Shown piece after piece: positions 53,277-60,183 of a stretch of 64,000 bases of DNA; position 1 is the stretch's first letter, and each line of letters starts with the position of its first letter. The notes under the pieces are model-generated. The model had not been told where the DNA came from and did no database searches. It worked only from the letters and a program-made list of their open reading frames with translations. This DNA comes from an uncultured Acidobacteriota bacterium (lineage in GTDB: Bacteria > Acidobacteriota > Terriglobia > UBA7540). The stretch is from contig CAWDSK010000009.1 in NCBI GenBank assembly GCA_963804995.1, forward strand, positions 64,001-128,000, read 5' to 3'. A program made the translations under genes and the position numbers.

Positions 53277-56200
53277 CTAGAACAATAACTTCAGCCCAAA
53301 CTGAATCTGGCGGGAAGTGGTGGCGGTATTGGTGATCACTCCCGCCGTAGTTGCCGGCGTGGAGGATGCCGAGGAAAACACCACCGCATTAGGGCTGCCG
53401 AAATTAGCGCGGTTGAACAGATTGAAAAACTCCGCGCGGAATTGCACTCGCACTTTTTCCGTGAGGGTGGTAGTTTTCAGCACGGAGAAATCCAGTTGCG
53501 CCAAACCTGGTCCCGTCAGAACATCCCTTCCCACGTTTCCGTAAGTGCCGGCCGCCGGCAGCACAAACGCGTTGGGATTGAAGTATTGATTAGGGCCGCC
53601 CAGAATCACGCTTCCACTGAACGCCGGATTCCACAAAGGCCGAATGGGATTCCTGCTATCGCCATTGCGCGTTGGATTGAATCCCAATTGCGGCGTGAAG
53701 GGGAAACCGGTTTGCAGCGTTTCAATGGCGCTGATTCGCCAACCGTCGGCCATCTTTCCTTGCCACCCACCCAGATCGCTGAGGAACCTCTTCCCGGACC
53801 CGAAGGGTAGTTCGTATCCGCCGTTGATAGCGGCGAGGTGGCTCACGTTGGAACTGGCGGCGCTCCAATCAAGCCGCGGGCGGAGCGGGAACATCACGAA
53901 GCCCGGCGCGTTGGCTCCCACGCTGCTGTTCATGGCGGTGCCGTCATCCAGGTTTTTGGAATACGTGTAGGCGCCGCGAAGCTGCAATCCGTGGCTCAGG
54001 CGCCGGTTCACATCCACCACCAGCGCGTTATAAGAACTGTCGCCGTTTGAGAACCACGTGGTGGTGTTGGCAAGCTTGGGATTCGCGAGCGGCGCGCCAT
54101 TGGGATAGTAAACCGTTCCAGCGGCCAGGTTCGCAGGGCAAGATGCCGCGGGGCAGATGGTGGGAAACGGCTCATTGGCGTCCACCGACAGCATCTCATG
54201 GTAGCCATGCGAGCCGCGATACCCAACGCTCAAAGATGTGTTCGTAGAAATCTGTTGGTCGATGGTGAAGGTGTAAGAGATGACCGTAGGGGTATAAGCA
54301 TCGGGCTGTATCCCACTCGGAGAGATTAAGCTACCGGCGGGAAGCGGAGCGCCCGGAACAATCTCGAGGCCGGCCAGAGAGATGTTCTTCAGCGATTGGG
54401 TCGCGTTAAAAGGCGCCGTCTGGTCCAGGCGGTAATCAATGTTGTCAAGCAAAGCGCGGTAGATTCCGAAACCGGCGCGAACGGCCGTCCGGCTCTTGCC
54501 AAAGGGATCCCACGCCAGGCCGACGCGAGGCTCATGCAGAAACTTGGCGCGATTGTCTGTAAACACGGAGTTGCCCACGGCGGGCTGCGTCTGGATGACC
54601 CCGTTCGCGAATACGAAATTAGCGGCGCGGCCGTGTGACTCGTTCCAGCCATCGGTGGATTCGGCCCGGAATCCGATGCGCAGATTCAGATTCGAGCGCA
54701 GCTTGATCTGGTCCTGAACGAACCAGGCACCCTCGATCGACCGCCATCCCACCGCCGTGGGCGAAGGAACCACGGTGAACGTCCCAATCTTGCCTTGGAG
54801 GAAGCTGGTGAGACTCCCAAACGAGGCCTGGCCGTATTGGTCCTGCGCCAGGTTGTCGTTCGCCTGAATGCGCTCGAACCACGCTCCGGCTTCGACGGCA
54901 TGCCGGCCGTGGTTGTAATAGATGTGGTCGTCAAGCGTGTAGAGATTGCGCGCCGCCGTCAGGTTACTTCCCGCATTGGTGCCCGCCAGGCTGATTTGGG
55001 ATGCGGCATTGAGCGCCGTGCCACCCCCGATGACGACTGCTCCAATGGGATCGCCCGCCACCCATCCCGGAAGATTGACACGTGTCTGGCCGGTAAAGAA
55101 ATAACTAGCTCGAGAAAAGCCCACGCGCGCCGTATTGAGGAAGGATGTGGAAAAGACGTGTTGCTCCTGCACACTTGCAACCTGCTCACGCAGGCTCTCC
55201 ACAACGTTGCTTAGCGGATTGACCGTGGGCGTGAAATCCGCGCTGTCATCCACGGTGTAGACCCCAAACAACGTGTCCTTCGACGAAAGATTATCGTCAA
55301 TACGCGTGGTGCCGAAATCTTCCCGGATGTGCTGGAGCGGGTGGCTGAAGGCTTCCGCGATGCCCCCTCCCAGGTCCGGGCCGTTTTGTACAGGCCAGAG
55401 CGCCAGCAGCGGCGCGGCGCTTGGTGCAACCCCGACGTTCGCCAACACTCCATTGGACTCCGGCAAATATCCCAGGCGCGCCTGGTTGTCAGGGACCAGC
55501 GTCACATCGCTAAGCCCCAGGTTCTGCCGGAATCCTTCGTAGTTCCCGAAAAAAAGCAGCTTGTCTCTTTTGATCGGCCCGCCCAGCGCGCCGCCGAATT
55601 CGTTGCGCTGGAAGGACGGAACCCGGCCCTGGTCGAAGAAATTGCGCGCGTCCAAAGCGCTGTTGCGGAGGAATTCGTATCCCGTCCCGTGGAATTGGTT
55701 GCTGCCGGACGCTGTAACGATGCTGATTTGGCCACCCGGGCGCTTGCCGTATTCCGCCCCGTACGTATCAGTGACCACATTGAACTCTCGCACCGCGTCC
55801 ACTCCCAGCAGTTGCCCGCTGGCGCCGCCCGGCGTGACGTTGATCAATGAGGCGCCCGTGTATTCAACTCCATTCAGAAGAAATAGGTTGTCCTGGGGAC
55901 GGTGGCCCGAAATCGCAAACATGTTCCCGACCGAGGAATTGGAAGTGCCCACGCCGCCGGACCGTTCCGAGGTGTAATTCACGATCGCCGGGTTGAGGGT
56001 GACCAATTCGTCGTAGCTGCGGCCATTCAGCGGCAGATCCTTCACCTGACGCTCATTCACGAGCCCGGAGGTCTGTTGCAAGGAGAGGTTGACCTGCAAA
56101 GGCGTGGCCTCCACGGTCACAGATTGCTCGATTGCCCCGACGCTTAGGGCGAAATCCACCGCCACAGCTTGCCCCACCACGATGTCAATGCCGGTCTTGA

Positions 56201-56558
56201 TCTGCGACTGGAACCCTTCCTGTGAGGCTGTAACCTTGTACCGGCCCACGGCAATGGAAGGGGCGGCATACAGTCCCGCGCCGTCGGTCGAGAGCTTGCG
56301 GGCGAACCCGGTTTCCAGGTTTTCCACAGAAATCTTGGCGCCTGGCAGCACCGCGCCGGATTGGTCTCGAACCGTCCCTGAGATCGTTCCCCCCACGACC
56401 TGGCTGAACACCGGAACCGCGAGCAAAAACACCAGTCCGAGAACCTGCACGCCAACCATCCGCGGCACATAGGAGCGCTGCCGAAAGATGGCGCCCCGGC
56501 GGGTGTGAGGAAATCCGAAAACCTCTGTTTTCATATCAAATAATCGCTGTCTCATCAC
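53277..56558 (-). CDS. Oar-like TonB-dependent receptor with N-terminal carboxypeptidase-regulatory-like domain (start uncertain)
   Basis: GTISGTVRDQSGAV, LPLNGR, YEFLRNSALDARNFF, RQIQFGLKLLF terminus. Confidence 0.93.
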   Translation of the reverse strand: MMRQRLFDMKTEVFGFPHTRRGAIFRQRSYVPRMVGVQVLGLVFLLAVPVFSQVVGGTISGTVRDQSGAVLPGAKISVENLETGFARKLSTDGAGLYAAPSIAVGRYKVTASQEGFQSQIKTGIDIVVGQAVAVDFALSVGAIEQSVTVEATPLQVNLSLQQTSGLVNERQVKDLPLNGRSYDELVTLNPAIVNYTSERSGGVGTSNSSVGNMFAISGHRPQDNLFLLNGVEYTGASLINVTPGGASGQLLGVDAVREFNVVTDTYGAEYGKRPGGQISIVTASGSNQFHGTGYEFLRNSALDARNFFDQGRVPSFQRNEFGGALGGPIKRDKLLFFGNYEGFRQNLGLSDVTLVPDNQARLGYLPESNGVLANVGVAPSAAPLLALWPVQNGPDLGGGIAEAFSHPLQHIREDFGTTRIDDNLSSKDTLFGVYTVDDSADFTPTVNPLSNVVESLREQVASVQEQHVFSTSFLNTARVGFSRASYFFTGQTRVNLPGWVAGDPIGAVVIGGGTALNAASQISLAGTNAGSNLTAARNLYTLDDHIYYNHGRHAVEAGAWFERIQANDNLAQDQYGQASFGSLTSFLQGKIGTFTVVPSPTAVGWRSIEGAWFVQDQIKLRSNLNLRIGFRAESTDGWNESHGRAANFVFANGVIQTQPAVGNSVFTDNRAKFLHEPRVGLAWDPFGKSRTAVRAGFGIYRALLDNIDYRLDQTAPFNATQSLKNISLAGLEIVPGAPLPAGSLISPSGIQPDAYTPTVISYTFTIDQQISTNTSLSVGYRGSHGYHEMLSVDANEPFPTICPAASCPANLAAGTVYYPNGAPLANPKLANTTTWFSNGDSSYNALVVDVNRRLSHGLQLRGAYTYSKNLDDGTAMNSSVGANAPGFVMFPLRPRLDWSAASSNVSHLAAINGGYELPFGSGKRFLSDLGGWQGKMADGWRISAIETLQTGFPFTPQLGFNPTRNGDSRNPIRPLWNPAFSGSVILGGPNQYFNPNAFVLPAAGTYGNVGRDVLTGPGLAQLDFSVLKTTTLTEKVRVQFRAEFFNLFNRANFGSPNAVVFSSASSTPATTAGVITNTATTSRQIQFGLKLLF

Positions 56559-56876
56559 ACTCTCCTCAATGGGTGCGGGAGCACCCGATTGTAAGGTCCG
56601 TCCCGTGGGTTGTGGGGTTTCGTTTCCGACGGCCTATGCCATTCCACTTGCCGTTAATTGGCAAAGTCGAGTCCTCGGTGGGACCCGAGCAACGTTCCCC
56701 GGCTGTTTGCTCTTCGAGATATACATAGCGCCATAAATTGTAGCGGCGGTCTATGACCGCCGGCTGGACTTTGGCCTTTAACTAGATAAAGGCTGTCGGA
56801 AAGTATTTACTTGCAGAAAAGCCAGTCTTCTGATATCTAGTTATATGACTAGATATTCCTCAAGGAGGCTTTTCTC

Positions 56877-57164
56877 ATGGGGTTCCCTACCAAAGTACAG
56901 CTTATCAAACGCCAGGCGAGCGAGCAGTGGTACATCAACTTTCCTTCCGCCCTCGCCCAAGCCATGGAGTTTGCGCGCGGCGAATCGGTCGAATGGTTCG
57001 TCGAAAACAAAGGTCTGCTGGCCCTGCGACGAGCCTCGCCGCCGCCTTCCGTGCTAAAAAAAACTCTACCGGCGTCCTCGCCGAACTCGAACAACTCTGG
57101 AGCCAATGTTTCCCGGGCTTCCGCCAGCGCCGCGTTGCCGCGCACGCCCAAGCCCTCGCGCTGA
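56877..57164 (+). CDS. IS orfA, AbrB/SpoVT-like DNA-binding protein
   Basis: RBS AAGGAGG; TKVQLIKR...WYINFPSALAQAMEFARGESVEW; A8 run at 57056-57063. Confidence 0.7.
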   Translation: MGFPTKVQLIKRQASEQWYINFPSALAQAMEFARGESVEWFVENKGLLALRRASPPPSVLKKTLPASSPNSNNSGANVSRASASAALPRTPKPSR

Positions 57165-58504
57165 GCACCTTGCTTTGTCTGGGACGCCATACCGTGACCG
57201 GTCTGCTCACCACTTGCGGCCTGCAGTTCCGTGACTGGACCTCCAGTTACCGGCTCTTCTCCCAGCACCGTCTGCGGGTTGAGGCGCTCTTCTCCGTGGT
57301 GCGCCGCGCGGTGGTGAGCGAACTCGCACCCGGCGCTCCCGTCTGCGCCCTCCTCGATGACTCGCTGTTGCGTCGTTCCGGTCGGCGCACTCCCGGGGTG
57401 GCTTGGCGCCGCGACCCGCTGGGCCCGCGCTTTCAAACCAACTTCGTGCGCGCCCAGCGTTTTCTTCAAACCTCCCTCGCGCTCCCCACTCCCGACGGCT
57501 CCTGCCGCTTGCTCCCCATTGCTTTCCGCCATGCCCCCACGCCCCGCAAGCCTTCCCGGCAGGCCCCCGCCGCCGAGCAGCAGCAGTACCGCACCCAAGC
57601 GCGCGCTGCCCGCCTCGGTCAACGCGCCAGCGAACAGATCCACGATCTGCGTGCGGCCCTTGACTCCGATCCCGCCTCCGCTTCGCGCCTTCTCCTCGTC
57701 GCCTTCGATGGCGGATACACCAACCGCACCGTCCTCAAACGCCTTCCTCCCCATACCACCGCCATCGGCCGGCTCCGCAAAGATGCTCAGTTGCTGTTCC
57801 GGCCCGATCCCCAAACCCAAAAGGCGCGCGGTCGCCGTCTCTGCTACGGGCCTCCCGCTCCCACTCCCGAGCAGGTCCGCACCGACGATGCTCCCTGGCA
57901 GACCTTGACCTTTACCCATCACGGCATTCCCCATCAACTCCGCTTCAAGCGCCGCACCGGCCTCCTGTGGCGTGCCGCCGGCGCCCACCAATTCCTGCAA
58001 CTTGTCGTCATCGCGCCGCTCGCCTATCGTCTGCGCCAAGGTTCCAAGCTGCTCTATCGCCAACCCGCCTTCCTCCTCTGCACCGACGAAAACCTCGACC
58101 CCCAACTCCTCATCACAACTTACTTCCAACGCTGGGACATTGAAGTTAATTTCCGCGATGAAAAAACTCTGCTGGGAGTGGGCCAAGCCCAGGTCCGCTC
58201 CCCCCATTCGGTTGAGTCTGCCCCCGCCTTCACCGTGGCCGCCTATGCCCTCTTGCTCCTCGCTACCCATCGCGCCTTCGCCCGTACCCGCCACGGCCTG
58301 CTGCCGCGCCCCAAGTGGATCCACGCTGCCCCCACTGCCCGCATCTCCACCCAACACGCCATCCATCAACTGCGCGCCGAGGTCTGGGGCCGGGGACTGG
58401 GTCTCGATCATTTCTCCGGCTTCGCGCCTCCCCAACCCTCTACAACGAAGCCCCAGAATTGTACCTTCCCCCTCGCCTCCGCCCTCTGCTACGCCAATGC
58501 TTGA
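57056..58504 (+). CDS. DDE transposase (orfB, -1 frame relative to orfA)
   Basis: LLDDS, FDGGY, YFQRWDIEVNFRDEK (Y-2-R-3-E-6-K). Confidence 0.88.
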   Translation, partial: KKNSTGVLAELEQLWSQCFPGFRQRRVAAHAQALALSTLLCLGRHTVTGLLTTCGLQFRDWTSSYRLFSQHRLRVEALFSVVRRAVVSELAPGAPVCALLDDSLLRRSGRRTPGVAWRRDPLGPRFQTNFVRAQRFLQTSLALPTPDGSCRLLPIAFRHAPTPRKPSRQAPAAEQQQYRTQARAARLGQRASEQIHDLRAALDSDPASASRLLLVAFDGGYTNRTVLKRLPPHTTAIGRLRKDAQLLFRPDPQTQKARGRRLCYGPPAPTPEQVRTDDAPWQTLTFTHHGIPHQLRFKRRTGLLWRAAGAHQFLQLVVIAPLAYRLRQGSKLLYRQPAFLLCTDENLDPQLLITTYFQRWDIEVNFRDEKTLLGVGQAQVRSPHSVESAPAFTVAAYALLLLATHRAFARTRHGLLPRPKWIHAAPTARISTQHAIHQLRAEVWGRGLGLDHFSGFAPPQPSTTKPQNCTFPLASALCYANA

Positions 58505-58937
58505 ACTGCAAAAGGCCAAAGGCCAGGCGGCGGTCTATGACCGCCGGTCGGCGCTCATAGAGCGCCGCTACAGCCGAATGCGCAAACACTTATGGCGCTC
58601 TGTATAGTTTGATTGCGAGCGGCGAGCACGCTAAGCAGCGCGGGCAAAAATCAGCAAGCCCCGCGGCTGTGCTACCGTCGCCTGTAAGAGCCGATCCACG
58701 AAACGGGTGATGAAAGGAGAGATACTTTGAAGTGAAGAGTTCCCGCTCACCTGTCGCATGGCCGGCTAAATACAGTTCAGCCGACAACCGACTGCGTGTG
58801 ACGCAGCGCGACAACAACGATGAGCAAGATTGCTAACCATCCTGAGTGTGATGATAATCAAGTACGGATTTGCTGTCAAGCAGAACGGTCGATGGCGTCA
58901 TGTGCCATTTCAGCAAGTGTAGCGCAGACCTCCGCTG

Positions 58938-59065
58938 GAAGCTGTGAAAAAATCCCATCAAACCTTTCACCGCGGAGACGCGGAGGCGCAGAGGTTTGAA
59001 AACAAAGGGTCATTTCTCTGCGTCTCAGCGACTCAGCGGTGAAAATGGTATTTTTTCACACCTTC
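58938..59065. mobile_element. 128-bp MITE inserted in a REP loop, itself carrying an inverted repeat doublet
   Basis: Ends GAAGCTGTGAAAAAAT / ATTTTTTCACACCTTC; flanks CCGCTG/CCGTTG; host GTAGCGCAGACCT..AGGTCTGCG. Confidence 0.7.
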
Positions 59066-59381
59066 CCGTTGAGGTCTGCGGTTCTTCGTGAACCACTGGA
59101 GCGAATGTATCGTGGAGGGATGCAGCCGCCGGTGCCTGTGAATGTGGCTCGAGGTTCGAGCTTAGCGACACAGCCAGGAGTGGCTGTGCTACGTTGTCCC
59201 GGGTTGGAGATTTGGGGTTTTCCAATACGAAGGGCCGCGGACCCCAAAAACGGGGGACCGCGCTACGAAGTGACAAGAGTAGCGTCCCGATGCAGCGGGC
59301 GCTTCTCCCTGTGTCATTTGAGTGAACTTATGGTGGCGCGGCCGGTGGGGCGGAGAACGGCATGCAGAGCGAGTGCGATCG

Positions 59382-59720
59382 TCAAGGGATCGTCATGGGC
59401 TCGGCATCTCGAAGGCGGCGAATGGTTCCGAAGCCGTGGGCCTCTTCGTCCCATTTCACGCCATGCACCGGCACCACCATCTTCGGTCGGACGGCCAAAG
59501 CGAAGGCGCGCAGATCGGCGGCCGAGGCGTGGCCGCTGGTGTGGATGTAGGCAATCTCCGCGCCGCCCTTCTGGCACCATTCCAGCGCTTCCTTGTAATA
59601 CTGCTCCGACAAGCAGCCTTGCCACATGGAGAAGTCGAAGGCGTCATCGGCCGTGGGCACAACGCCGCCAGCCTGATAGTCGCGCAGCAGGGCGCGGCGC
59701 AGCATGATGACGTGGCGGCA
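59382..59720 (-). pseudogene. metallo-beta-lactamase/RNase J-like C-terminal fragment
   Basis: FSMWQG, IHTSGHAS, VVPVHG; N-terminal HxHxDH region absent. Confidence 0.75.
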
Positions 59721-59945
59721 CTTTGCGAGGTGGCGCGTGCGTGTTCGAGCAGATCGAGTCCTGTCAGGTCCGCCAGCCGGATTTCCGAGATGATAACGTC
59801 GTAGACCCCCGACTCGATTTTCGTTTTCGCGGCTTGTCCGTTTGAGACGGTTTCCACCCAGTGGCCCTTTTTACTAAGCGCCATCTCCAAAAGCCGGCAA
59901 AGAGATTCTTCGGGATCGATAATCAGCAGTTCGAGACATTCAAGG
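59721..59945 (-). pseudogene. response-regulator receiver domain fragment
   Basis: LLIIDPEESL...YDVIISEIRLADLTGLDLL; phospho-Asp position is E; fused to the MBL fragment. Confidence 0.65.
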
Positions 59946-60183
59946 CTCCTTATCGCGGATTTTGAAGTTAAAGGCTCGACGGGGCACCCGACAAGGTGGA
60001 ATCGCCGGGCAAGCGGCATCGCGAAGACAGAACTCTATTTCAGCAGAAGTGAGGTCGGGGCACGTCGGACTATTCTTCATGTCAGGGCGTAGCTGCGGAC
60101 TGGGCGGGATTGTAACAGAAAGGGTTGGTTACTGAAACGGCGGATAAGCACGGGTCGGAGGCCGGGGCGGGCTTTCGAGTATC

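Follow-up and report, generated by a model that had tools for sequence, protein, structure and literature searches.

The window, meaning the whole stretch of 64,000 nucleotides that was analysed, carries an insertion sequence of 1763 bp at 56764-58526, consisting of orfA and a transposase frame only and lying inside a REP doublet of the host. The size agrees on re-measurement with that given by an earlier sequence-only reading of the same DNA. The 16-bp terminal inverted repeats described there are present but imperfect, agreeing at 15/16 bases. The features of the locus are as follows.

56721-56736, plus strand: left outer arm of the host REP cluster, outside the insertion sequence, inverted relative to the arm ending at 58606; similar arms occur at uninterrupted sites of the genome
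56739-56762, plus strand: target GTAG-REP with tag, 8-bp stem and 3-nt loop; 26 genome matches to the hairpin core with at most one mismatch
56743-56763, plus strand: left copy of the 21-bp target duplication (hairpin and one nucleotide per side)
56764-56779, plus strand: left terminal inverted repeat with a 5'-CT end; boundary identical in all ten genome copies
56781-56788, plus strand: subterminal half-site resembling an arm of the palindrome below, candidate OrfA site; ACTAG here in 100 of 110 left ends
56833-56856, no strand: palindrome with CTAG-N8-CTAG core, candidate OrfA operator, 5' of the ribosome-binding site
56862-56868, plus strand: Shine-Dalgarno-like AAGGAGG of orfA, recognised from sequence; similar purine runs in most relatives
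56877-57164, plus strand: orfA, 95 aa; residues ~1-55 form an AbrB/MazE/SpoVT swapped-hairpin-type domain
57056-57063, plus strand: A8 slippery run leading from the orfA frame to the transposase frame (-1); present in all ten copies, selection starting here
57059-58504, plus strand: transposase frame, 481 aa after the slip, with DDE, full YREK and a Tn5-like fold
58511-58526, minus strand: right terminal inverted repeat, from sequence comparison
58527-58547, plus strand: right copy of the 21-bp target duplication
58549-58572, minus strand: partner REP of the doublet, inverted, ending in CTACA
58591-58606, minus strand: right outer arm of the host REP cluster, an inverted-repeat match to the left arm

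The 21-bp direct repeat is exact and comprises an 8-bp stem, a 3-nt loop and one unpaired base on either side, its first G being the final G of the GTAG tag. The proposal that it represents the entire stem-loop of a GTAG-REP (REP as defined in a passage of PMC3733652) is borne out on both sides of the element. Excision of the element in silico likewise restores, as had been predicted, a REP doublet with its outer arms, and near-identical uninterrupted versions are found elsewhere, for instance at C1:476617 and C6 minus 548142. The genome also contains 14 matches to Y1_Tnp, the RAYT-type family.

Ten copies of the element, with 99.8-100% identity, are present in this genome. Eight of them are flanked by a duplication of 18-27 bp, each being a different whole hairpin, rather than by the short, fixed duplications at non-palindromic sites which the sequence-only reading had named as contrary evidence. 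The remaining two copies (C1:277250 and C2:761832) have their flanks swapped between them and, once re-sorted, give one 21-bp hairpin site and one 7-bp non-hairpin site. To judge by its sequence, the element is probably an active insertion sequence. No convincing solo ends or miniature derivatives were found in this genome, where a single near-match lies on C6; a consensus scan of 56600-57000 gave no sigma-70 promoter, and Rfam no match over 56400-59000.

The assignment of OrfA relies on several lines of comparison. Pfam MazE_antitoxin is matched at E<=0.05 by 39 of 65 family members, the best at 1.3e-7, and the protein of the window itself scores 16 bits, under the cut-off of 24.7. Its structural model (pLDDT 87.5) places strands at 7-11 and 16-20, a helix at 24-30, and strands at 38-44 and 47-52, which is the swapped-hairpin order of two strands, helix and two strands. 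Searched with this model, Foldseek returned MazE as the best match (probability 0.97, E 0.2) and the VIA fold search a best Z of 5.2, with an rmsd of 2.3 A over 51 residues; the top eight Foldseek rows and the top nine VIA rows are, judging by their titles, AbrB-type proteins. Each score alone is weak, and OrfA is assigned a predicted AbrB/MazE-type fold, in line with the AbrB/SpoVT-like character first ascribed to it. The orfA profile gave a single weak sequence match in the PDB, C56 of pSSVi (E 0.13), and the predicted OrfA dimer scored 0.32 against a mark of 0.42, which is not evidence either way. Among sequence clusters, the same profile has 3933 matches. A toxin-antitoxin module was considered and rejected, since the element holds no cognate toxin gene.

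Both the palindrome in front of orfA and the extra half-site beside the left terminal repeat, already pointed out in the earlier reading, are in place. Of 105 relatives, 103 have the CTAG-N8-CTAG core in front of orfA, with spacers that vary; the core is kept as an operator would be. Genome-wide the palindrome has 17 matches, 10 of which should be copies of the element.

The transposase frame carries the complete YREK signature, as had been noted for it (Y355, R358, E362, K369), all four residues being invariant in a 50-row alignment together with D100/D101 and D217. Foldseek matches its model to Tn5 transposase (E 4.5e-8), PF01609 is found in it, and a search with it gave 4594 matches among sequence clusters. 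HMM classification, suggested earlier as a check, places it above the cut-off of the profile NF049999 transpos_IS701_3 (182.8 bits against 170), below that of NF033540 (53.6 against 150), and far under those of the IS4 profiles. The pass is marginal, because other clade members score 132-182 bits on NF049999, and the single ORF and 4-5-bp duplication of IS701 are absent. In a tree of 23 rows, the AbrB branch has a support of 93/99, and relatives with a HARE-HTH orfA fall outside it. The element is best placed in a clade adjoining IS701, and its DDE transposase is Tn5-like.

In the orfA frame, the run reads CTA AAA AAA ACT. The relatives compared amount to 107 (132 loci minus 20 duplicates, four without an orfA match and one truncated), and at least eight A are found in 99 of them, exactly A8 in 90, and an in-frame A_AAA_AAN heptamer in 104; the transposase lies in the -1 frame in 98 of 105. 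A read error, which had been named as a danger to the frameshift, was rejected given the run in 10/10 copies and in those 90 relatives. Across 85 relatives, the synonymous single-base fraction in the transposase frame is 0.00-0.07 along orfA codons 1-60, 0.27-0.44 in the overlap and 0.64-0.98 beyond. Because the transposase frame comes under selection at the codon level from the A-run onward, the slip is taken as real. Start codons of that frame within 15 codons past the run occur in 0 of 105 relatives (the first comes at codon 16; in most relatives it comes at 33-44 or is missing), and an upstream start is lacking in 29 of 105. No in-frame orfA-transposase fusion is found among the best 120 transposase matches, and the longest among the best 150 orfA-profile matches has 220 aa. 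Three A7 cases look like homopolymer errors or mutants, and in one relative (L047) an extra base past the run, probably an assembly indel, joins both ORFs in one frame.

The sequence-only reading had spoken of a -1 slip, of which the joining of the frames stands, while its ribosomal nature is less secure, some relatives needing +1. The five copies in G305 (A9) and the relative L002 (A10) have intact transposase frames in +1, of 484 and 482 codons, and this need points to RNA-polymerase slippage, with an A gained or dropped, which would alter the expression step only. Such slippage has nearly an even chance of being the source of the fusion. It fits the want of an RNA stimulator 3' of the run, where 20 sequences gave no conserved structure (consensus -1.2 kcal/mol, no compensatory pairs), and of a Shine-Dalgarno-like run just 5' of it by inspection; the prevalence of the -1 frame and of the heptamer speaks for the ribosome instead, most runs, at A8, are shorter than the nine As quoted for efficient slippage in a passage of PMC5009743, and the +1 cases could themselves be homopolymer errors or mutants. 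That the transposase starts from a codon of its own, orfA being an unrelated passenger or antitoxin-like gene and the A-run incidental, is highly improbable. Gene callers do propose versions of 436, 447, 503 and 525 aa with internal or upstream starts, and an orfA homologue precedes, with an ATGA overlap, a different remnant at C6:1713065 which by inspection we take to be IS1182-like. Nevertheless, in the 67 of 85 relatives whose upstream-start frame is open, that frame bears no purifying selection (synonymous fraction 0.04 against 0.76 for the orfA frame), the 436-aa start would drop ~45 residues matched by NF049999 from its profile position 3 onward, and the A-run is kept from Acidobacteriota to Armatimonadota and Bacteroidales records.

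The hairpin footprint extends well beyond the window. Considering the element, a sister element and relatives together, 43 of 43 distinct duplications of at least 10 bp, a set selected for that length and including non-independent kin, are centred on the hairpin loop. None has an end more than 2 nt from the foot of the stem, as expected from the cut at the base of the hairpin proposed earlier, and in 29 of the 43 either end lies exactly 1 nt beyond the stem. Tabulated against independently measured hairpin length, as that reading had advised, duplication length follows the hairpin (r=0.89); it ranges over 17-34 bp and so does not keep to 21 bp. Among relatives, 90/102 left and 80/89 right ends have a perfect stem of 6 bp or more starting within 2 nt of them; the same is true of 108 out of 20000 positions drawn at random from the genome, so that chance does not account for the hairpins. 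The sister element, which has a HARE-HTH (winged-helix) orfA coupled by ATGA with no slip, shows hairpin duplications in 7 of 7 cases, one with a terminal mismatch, and a further relative (L064), judged by inspection to have the HARE-HTH orfA type, has a 29-bp duplication. Matching duplications are kept at 28 of 31 loci in long-contig assemblies but at 7 of 44 short-contig loci; at 25 of the other 37 the left and right hairpins differ, which may reflect chimeras of the assembly or copies that have recombined with each other. For the distant members L005, L006, L017 and L008, ends and duplications were searched for and could not be found. Hairpins appear to be preferred and not obligatory targets, because one inferred site shows a 7-bp duplication with no centred hairpin.

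The claim that the element targets REPs did not hold as a matter of specificity. Among the nine hairpin targets in the genome, which all come from repeated families (2-38 matches), the GTAG tag is present on five and absent from four, and only 1 of 35 insertions of relatives carries it; the target sequences have no consensus in common. An REP-specific insertion sequence of the IS1397/ISPsy8/ISRm22 type was rejected on these grounds, several of the nine target sequences being unrelated. Targeting thus seems to go by shape and not by REP sequence, GTAG-REPs being enriched but not required. Sequence, accessibility or survival also matter, because GTAG-tagged hairpins are over-represented among the targets here (5/9 against 221/1505, binomial p=0.005).

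Three other accounts of target choice were weighed against recognition by shape. Sequence-specific REP targeting with a fixed stagger of ~21 bp, the match to hairpin length being a by-product of REP size, would explain why 21 bp is the commonest length (13/42) and why tagged hairpins and repeated families prevail among the targets; it is very unlikely, being largely refuted by the dependence of length on the stem, by duplications of 20, 21, 21, 24 and 27 bp left by the five identical G305 copies, and by the targets of relatives. It is unlikely, though less so, that the hairpin is read while single-stranded, as at a replication fork, or that an insertion on one side, with a short stagger, is followed by duplication of the hairpin through replication or repair slippage, no cruciform being attacked on both strands. 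Duplex DNA does not readily extrude short stems, the 7-bp duplication at the lone non-hairpin site may represent a default stagger, and the swapped-flank pair would also fit replicative intramolecular transposition; still, loop-symmetric ends in every duplication, mostly one base out on both sides, fit two equivalent cuts on opposite strands better. Finally, the AbrB domain itself might recognise the hairpin, given its fusion to the transposase and the binding of palindromes by proteins of its type. This is extremely improbable: from sequence comparison, the AbrB domain does not seem to pick the target, because hairpins are also duplicated by the sister element, whose orfA is of winged-helix type and which has no slip, and HARE-HTH-orfA relatives outside the AbrB branch leave the same footprint.

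The preferred reading, to which we give a probability of roughly 0.7, is that of an active insertion sequence of the clade next to IS701, whose Tn5-like transposase picks its target by shape and whose OrfA serves in slip-fusion and regulation. orfA would be translated from its own ribosome-binding site, a minority of events slipping on A8 to give a predicted OrfA-transposase fusion of ~543 aa and the rest the 95-aa OrfA. The latter, as its fold and the conservation of the sites suggest, would bind the CTAG-N8-CTAG palindrome and the half-site by the left end, and repress or position the transposase. The catalytic part would capture a short perfect palindrome with a 6-15-bp stem and a 3-4-nt loop, which, as the footprint geometry suggests, would be extruded into a cruciform or into a double hairpin induced by protein. 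For a cruciform to form spontaneously, stems of 7-8 bp are short. The two element ends would be joined to opposite strands, each ~1 base beyond the 5' foot of its stem, after which repair would leave a full copy of the hairpin on either side. REPs would be struck as common perfect hairpins and not for their tag.

More tentatively, at somewhat less than even odds, these elements may form an undescribed, widespread family in which a Tn5-like transposase recognises a four-way junction in the manner of a junction resolvase, any hairpin that is short and perfect serving as target and setting the size of the footprint, and in which the front DNA-binding module is exchangeable (AbrB by A-run slip, winged helix by ATGA) and serves regulation or end binding only. 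If so, insertion would be programmable through hairpin design. A DDE transposase normally has a fixed duplication length; in the present clade, which comprises thousands of sequence clusters, the target dictates that length, to a precision of one base at the foot of the stem. A structure-guided integration tool may be possible, and the element offers a direct way to test short-palindrome extrusion in living bacteria. Insertions would be nearly harmless to the host, because both hairpin copies would survive, with the terminator or REP intact on each side. The element would also be a natural instance of whole stem-loop duplication, a route present only as a model in a figure of Wan et al. 2017 (PMC5678879).

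Among known systems, the rhizobial IS701 member WP_088194108.1 (Sinorhizobium/Rhizobium plasmid) has 25% identity over 464 residues and very similar first ten terminal bases, yet it scores 309 bits on NF049999, lies on a separate tree branch, has one ORF, and shows a 5-bp duplication in two of three copies looked at, against 17-34 bp here. A single ORF, as in this member, is typical of IS701. Table 1 of PMC2266710 gives the family a 4-bp duplication, an incomplete YREK and 1400-1550 bp, and a passage of PMC8024623 gives 4-5 bp, or 4-9 bp for ISGka1/2, which agrees with the earlier statement that IS4/IS701 elements have shorter duplications and, for the rhizobial member, a single ORF. The element differs by duplications of 18-27 bp in eight of ten copies, two ORFs joined by a slip and its length of 1763 bp, whereas its tyrosine in YREK is a weak mark, since 4 of 27 IS701 members also keep the one that is usually lacking (PMC2266710, in part). 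Against the IS701 end consensus ---YACT-Y--YR, which by the same passages does not cover the whole family, the element agrees at positions 5-7 (ACT), 9 (T) and 12 (C) and departs at positions 4 and 13. With IS4/Tn5 (IS50), the element has in common the full YREK, the 5'-CT ends and the Tn5-like fold. Its first DDE spacer (~116 residues) is slightly over the 60-110 of IS4 and its second (144) inside 100-150. IS4, in the relevant part of PMC2266710, is marked by a transposase gene free of frameshifts and by a duplication of ~10 bp, or 7-13 bp depending on the subgroup; here the slip is present, and only the non-hairpin site gives 7 bp.

Elements that insert in REPs, namely IS1397, ISKpn1, ISPsy8, IS621, ISPpu9/10, ISPa11 and ISRm22, do so, in the passages of Tobes and Pareja 2006 (PMC1525189), at one consensus and a fixed point with 0-6-bp duplications, whereas this one accepts hairpins of many sequences and duplicates each in full. 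A small DNA-binding OrfA is also fused to the catalytic ORF by an A-run shift in IS1, IS3, IS5 and IS630, and the passage of PMC5009743 on that fusion lists no IS4/IS701-type element. In the literature searched, no insertion sequence was found whose slip-fused OrfA has an AbrB-type domain, nor a named group with these properties. The earlier suggestion of an uncharacterised group may hold for the AbrB orfA and slip; hairpin duplication has a precedent in IS1630. The OrfA proteins of IS1, IS3, IS5 and IS630 are of helix-turn-helix or zinc-finger type, not AbrB. The precedent, IS1630 of Mycoplasma fermentans, reportedly from work by Calcutt, Lavrrar and Wise in 1999, belongs to a different transposase family, IS30, and is not known to have an AbrB orfA or a slip. 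IS1272 (IS1182 family) targets 22-30-bp palindromes of unrelated sequence in a structure-dependent manner termed 'stem-loop replacing' in the relevant sections of Wan et al. 2017 (PMC5678879), the hairpin being deleted with no duplication. In pathway b of Fig. 13 there, a model only, attack at the 5' feet of the cruciform duplicates the whole stem-loop. Hairpin duplication is therefore rare but not unheard of, and the element described here, which duplicates its hairpin where IS1272 deletes it, matches the footprint of that pathway.

The element is a real, active IS of an apparently unnamed clade, and the features listed for it in a sequence-only reading are all found in the window:

53277-56558, minus strand: gene of 1093 aa, TonB-dependent-receptor-like by inspection and oriented divergently to the element
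56764-58526: IS element, 1763 bp, ends agreeing at 15 of 16 bases
56781-56788: half-site by the left end
56833-56856: CTAG-N8-CTAG palindrome upstream of the orfA RBS
57056-57063: A8 run at which the two frames meet
57064-57164: 33-codon orfA tail past the slip
about 59000-59300: REP-like hairpins
59382-60034, minus strand: response-regulator-like frame, apparently split by a fragment that by inspection looks like the terminal part of a metallo-beta-lactamase-fold/RNase J-like protein

On either side of the element stands the same 21-bp sequence, an exact repeat in which an 8-bp stem with its 3-nt loop is bordered by a single unpaired base per side. Its 16-bp terminal inverted repeats are present, if imperfect, and its removal rebuilds, as had been proposed, a GTAG-REP doublet with outer arms, uninterrupted near-identical versions of which occur on contigs C1 and C6 of the same genome. 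The insertion point lies in an intergenic REP cluster upstream of the receptor-like gene, and the genome holds 14 matches to Y1_Tnp, the family that includes REP-associated transposases.

Ten full copies, 99.8-100% identical by BLAST, are present in this genome. Eight carry duplications (21, 19, 22, 22, 21, 18, 27 and 21 bp), every one a hairpin. The remaining two, at C1:277250 and C2:761832, have exchanged flanks; crossing these yields a hairpin duplication of 21 bp and, at a site without a centred hairpin, a duplication of 7 bp. Whether the exchange came from recombination between copies, from assembly or from (replicative) intramolecular transposition, one target of this pair was not a hairpin.

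Relatives were collected from GTDB genomes (53 loci), from searches by phylum (15 genomes among 301 and 10 among 401) and from metagenomes (the best 80 of 548); their named records are mostly from Acidobacteriota, with some from Armatimonadota and Bacteroidales. A perfect stem of at least 6 bp starting no more than 2 nt from the end is found at 90/102 left and 80/89 right ends, counts that keep identical insertions of one genome's element uncollapsed, against 108 of 20000 random positions. Both flanks are available at 75 loci: the two sides share a duplication of at least 15 bp in 28 of the 31 from long-contig assemblies and in 7 of the other 44, where 25 of the remaining 37 show two different hairpins. 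The missing duplications are probably due to recombination, or to assemblies running through a repeat with many copies. All 43 distinct duplications of at least 10 bp are symmetric about a 3-4-nt loop, with ends one base outside the stem on both sides in 29, flush in six, 1-2 nt inside in six and two bases outside on both sides in two. When duplication length was tabulated against independently measured hairpin length, the two were correlated (r=0.89 over the 43). The 21-bp duplication claimed for the window's copy does therefore comprise the whole hairpin, but its length is no constant, ranging from 17 to 34 bp with the target. That the footprint of a DDE transposase is set by the shape of its target is the best-supported surprise of the analysis.

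Targeting of REPs, also proposed earlier, holds as a preference: the GTAG tag occurs in five of the nine hairpin targets in this genome and in 221 of its 1505 hairpins overall (perfect, stem of at least 7 bp, loop of 3-4 nt; binomial p=0.005), but other targets lack it, one bearing GTGG instead. REPs are thus favoured, not required. Families of at least three members account for 639 of the 1505 hairpins, and the largest, with 141 copies, is a target of neither this element nor the second IS family of the genome.

This sister element (C5:393730-395559 and six further copies, 1830 bp) serves as a control. Its 459-aa transposase is 41% identical and scores 132 bits against NF049999, below the cut-off; its orfA is HARE-HTH-like (Pfam E 5e-4, also below the cut-off) and joins the transposase through an ATGA overlap without slip, and no CTAG palindrome was seen in it by inspection. 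All seven copies duplicate a hairpin (18-23 bp, with a terminal mismatch in one), as does a further element, L064, with an orfA of the same kind by inspection (29 bp). In a 23-row tree an 18-row clade (support 100/99) unites these rows with the AbrB-bearing elements, separate from the branch with a rhizobial element; support for the grouping of the AbrB rows is 93/99 (not starred). Because elements without an AbrB orfA duplicate hairpins, targeting is a property of the catalytic part, independent of AbrB, and AbrB as reader of the target is the least probable of the explanations weighed here.

We consider it probable (about 0.7) that a Tn5-like transposase attacks an extruded palindrome at its 5' feet. 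Each element end would be joined about one base outside such a foot, the two on opposite strands, and repair would then duplicate the whole hairpin. Of this scheme the footprint is observed, the cruciform predicted. The main rival, in which the target is captured on single-stranded DNA or the duplication arises by repair, is distinctly less likely. A fixed stagger combined with recognition of REP sequence could draw on the GTAG enrichment; with lengths that follow the hairpin and targets without the tag, it is poorly supported and improbable.

The AbrB fusion and its slip are a second oddity, independent of the shape-set footprint. OrfA has 95 aa, and the overlapping -1 frame runs for 481 codons after the A8 run. 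The proposed join to the -1 frame holds up and is no read error, the same run being present in all ten copies; at least eight As occur in 99/107 distinct relatives, and the transposase lies at -1 in 98/105, +1 in six and 0 in one. Selection was gauged by the synonymous share of single-base changes among 85 collinear relatives. In the transposase frame this share is 0.00-0.07 up to orfA codon 60, rises to 0.27-0.44 across codons 61-90 and reaches 0.64-0.98 beyond. For the orfA frame it falls from 0.74-0.97 ahead of the run to 0.32-0.61 within the overlap and 0.08-0.26 past the stop. From these profiles, both the 95-aa OrfA and the predicted fusion look selected. Independent translation of the transposase, for which gene callers choose an upstream in-frame start, is very improbable: that start shows no selection (0.04) and is absent from 29/105 relatives. 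Since purifying selection acts on the 33-codon tail in both frames and most relatives keep OrfA at 95 aa, free OrfA may need this tail.

No conserved 3' structure was found after the slip. In two genomes, G305 (five copies, A9) and G138 (A10), the transposase lies at +1 with its frame otherwise intact; the G305 relatives keep the operator core and lack the half-site. According to the accessible text of PMC5009743, ISs are not known to use +1 ribosomal shifting but do use polymerase slippage, for which nine As are the efficient length. Ribosomal and polymerase slippage appear about equally probable here.

The AbrB/SpoVT-like assignment of OrfA is supported by Pfam, whose MazE_antitoxin profile matches 39 of the 65 family members, and by a model (pLDDT 87.5) whose top fold matches, each weak singly, are MazE, SpoVT, C56, AbrB and VapB. 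In the Atlas, unnamed clusters rank first and an AbrB/MazE-labelled cluster follows at 0.94, with the family in 12% of its members. The element holds no toxin partner. The palindrome and half-site noted earlier are conserved, the CTAG-N8-CTAG core in 103/105 relatives (spacer variable) and the half-site in 100/110 left ends, the pattern of an operator to which OrfA may bind. Elsewhere in the genome, at C6:1713065-1714100, a solitary orfA homologue (46% identity) is preceded by a different palindrome of its own and overlaps, via ATGA, an internally deleted transposase that looks IS1182-like by inspection; the AbrB module may move between IS families.

The transposase matches NF049999 IS701_3 (182.8 bits vs 170) and PF01609, and is a YREK-type DDE enzyme as first read, with full YREK and invariant D100/D101, D217 and E362; its best structural match is Tn5 transposase (E 4.5e-8, TM about 0.5). 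The nearest annotated relative found, a rhizobial plasmid element (25% identity, 309 bits), is a single-ORF IS701_3 from Sinorhizobium/Rhizobium plasmids whose ends resemble those of the clade and which has a 5-bp C-N-N-A-G duplication in two of three copies. The element is therefore not a strict-sense IS701 member, and the rhizobial loci are a useful outgroup for what changed in target capture. Nor is it IS4 by the criteria in the accessible part of PMC2266710, because of its frameshift and long duplication. A literature search, with ISfinder and most subscription journals outside its scope, found no IS701-like hairpin-duplicating element and no AbrB-type orfA. The described REP-targeting ISs have 0-6-bp duplications at one consensus, as far as the available portion of PMC1525189 goes. 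The group thus still appears unnamed, but its hairpin duplication is not without parallel. IS1630 (IS30 family) works like it, going by the title of a paper cited in PMC3317919, whose text, as far as available, gives 16-26-bp duplications. In the available sections of PMC5678879, pathway b of the cruciform model matches the footprint, and IS1272 deletes its target hairpin, whereas the element described here duplicates it.
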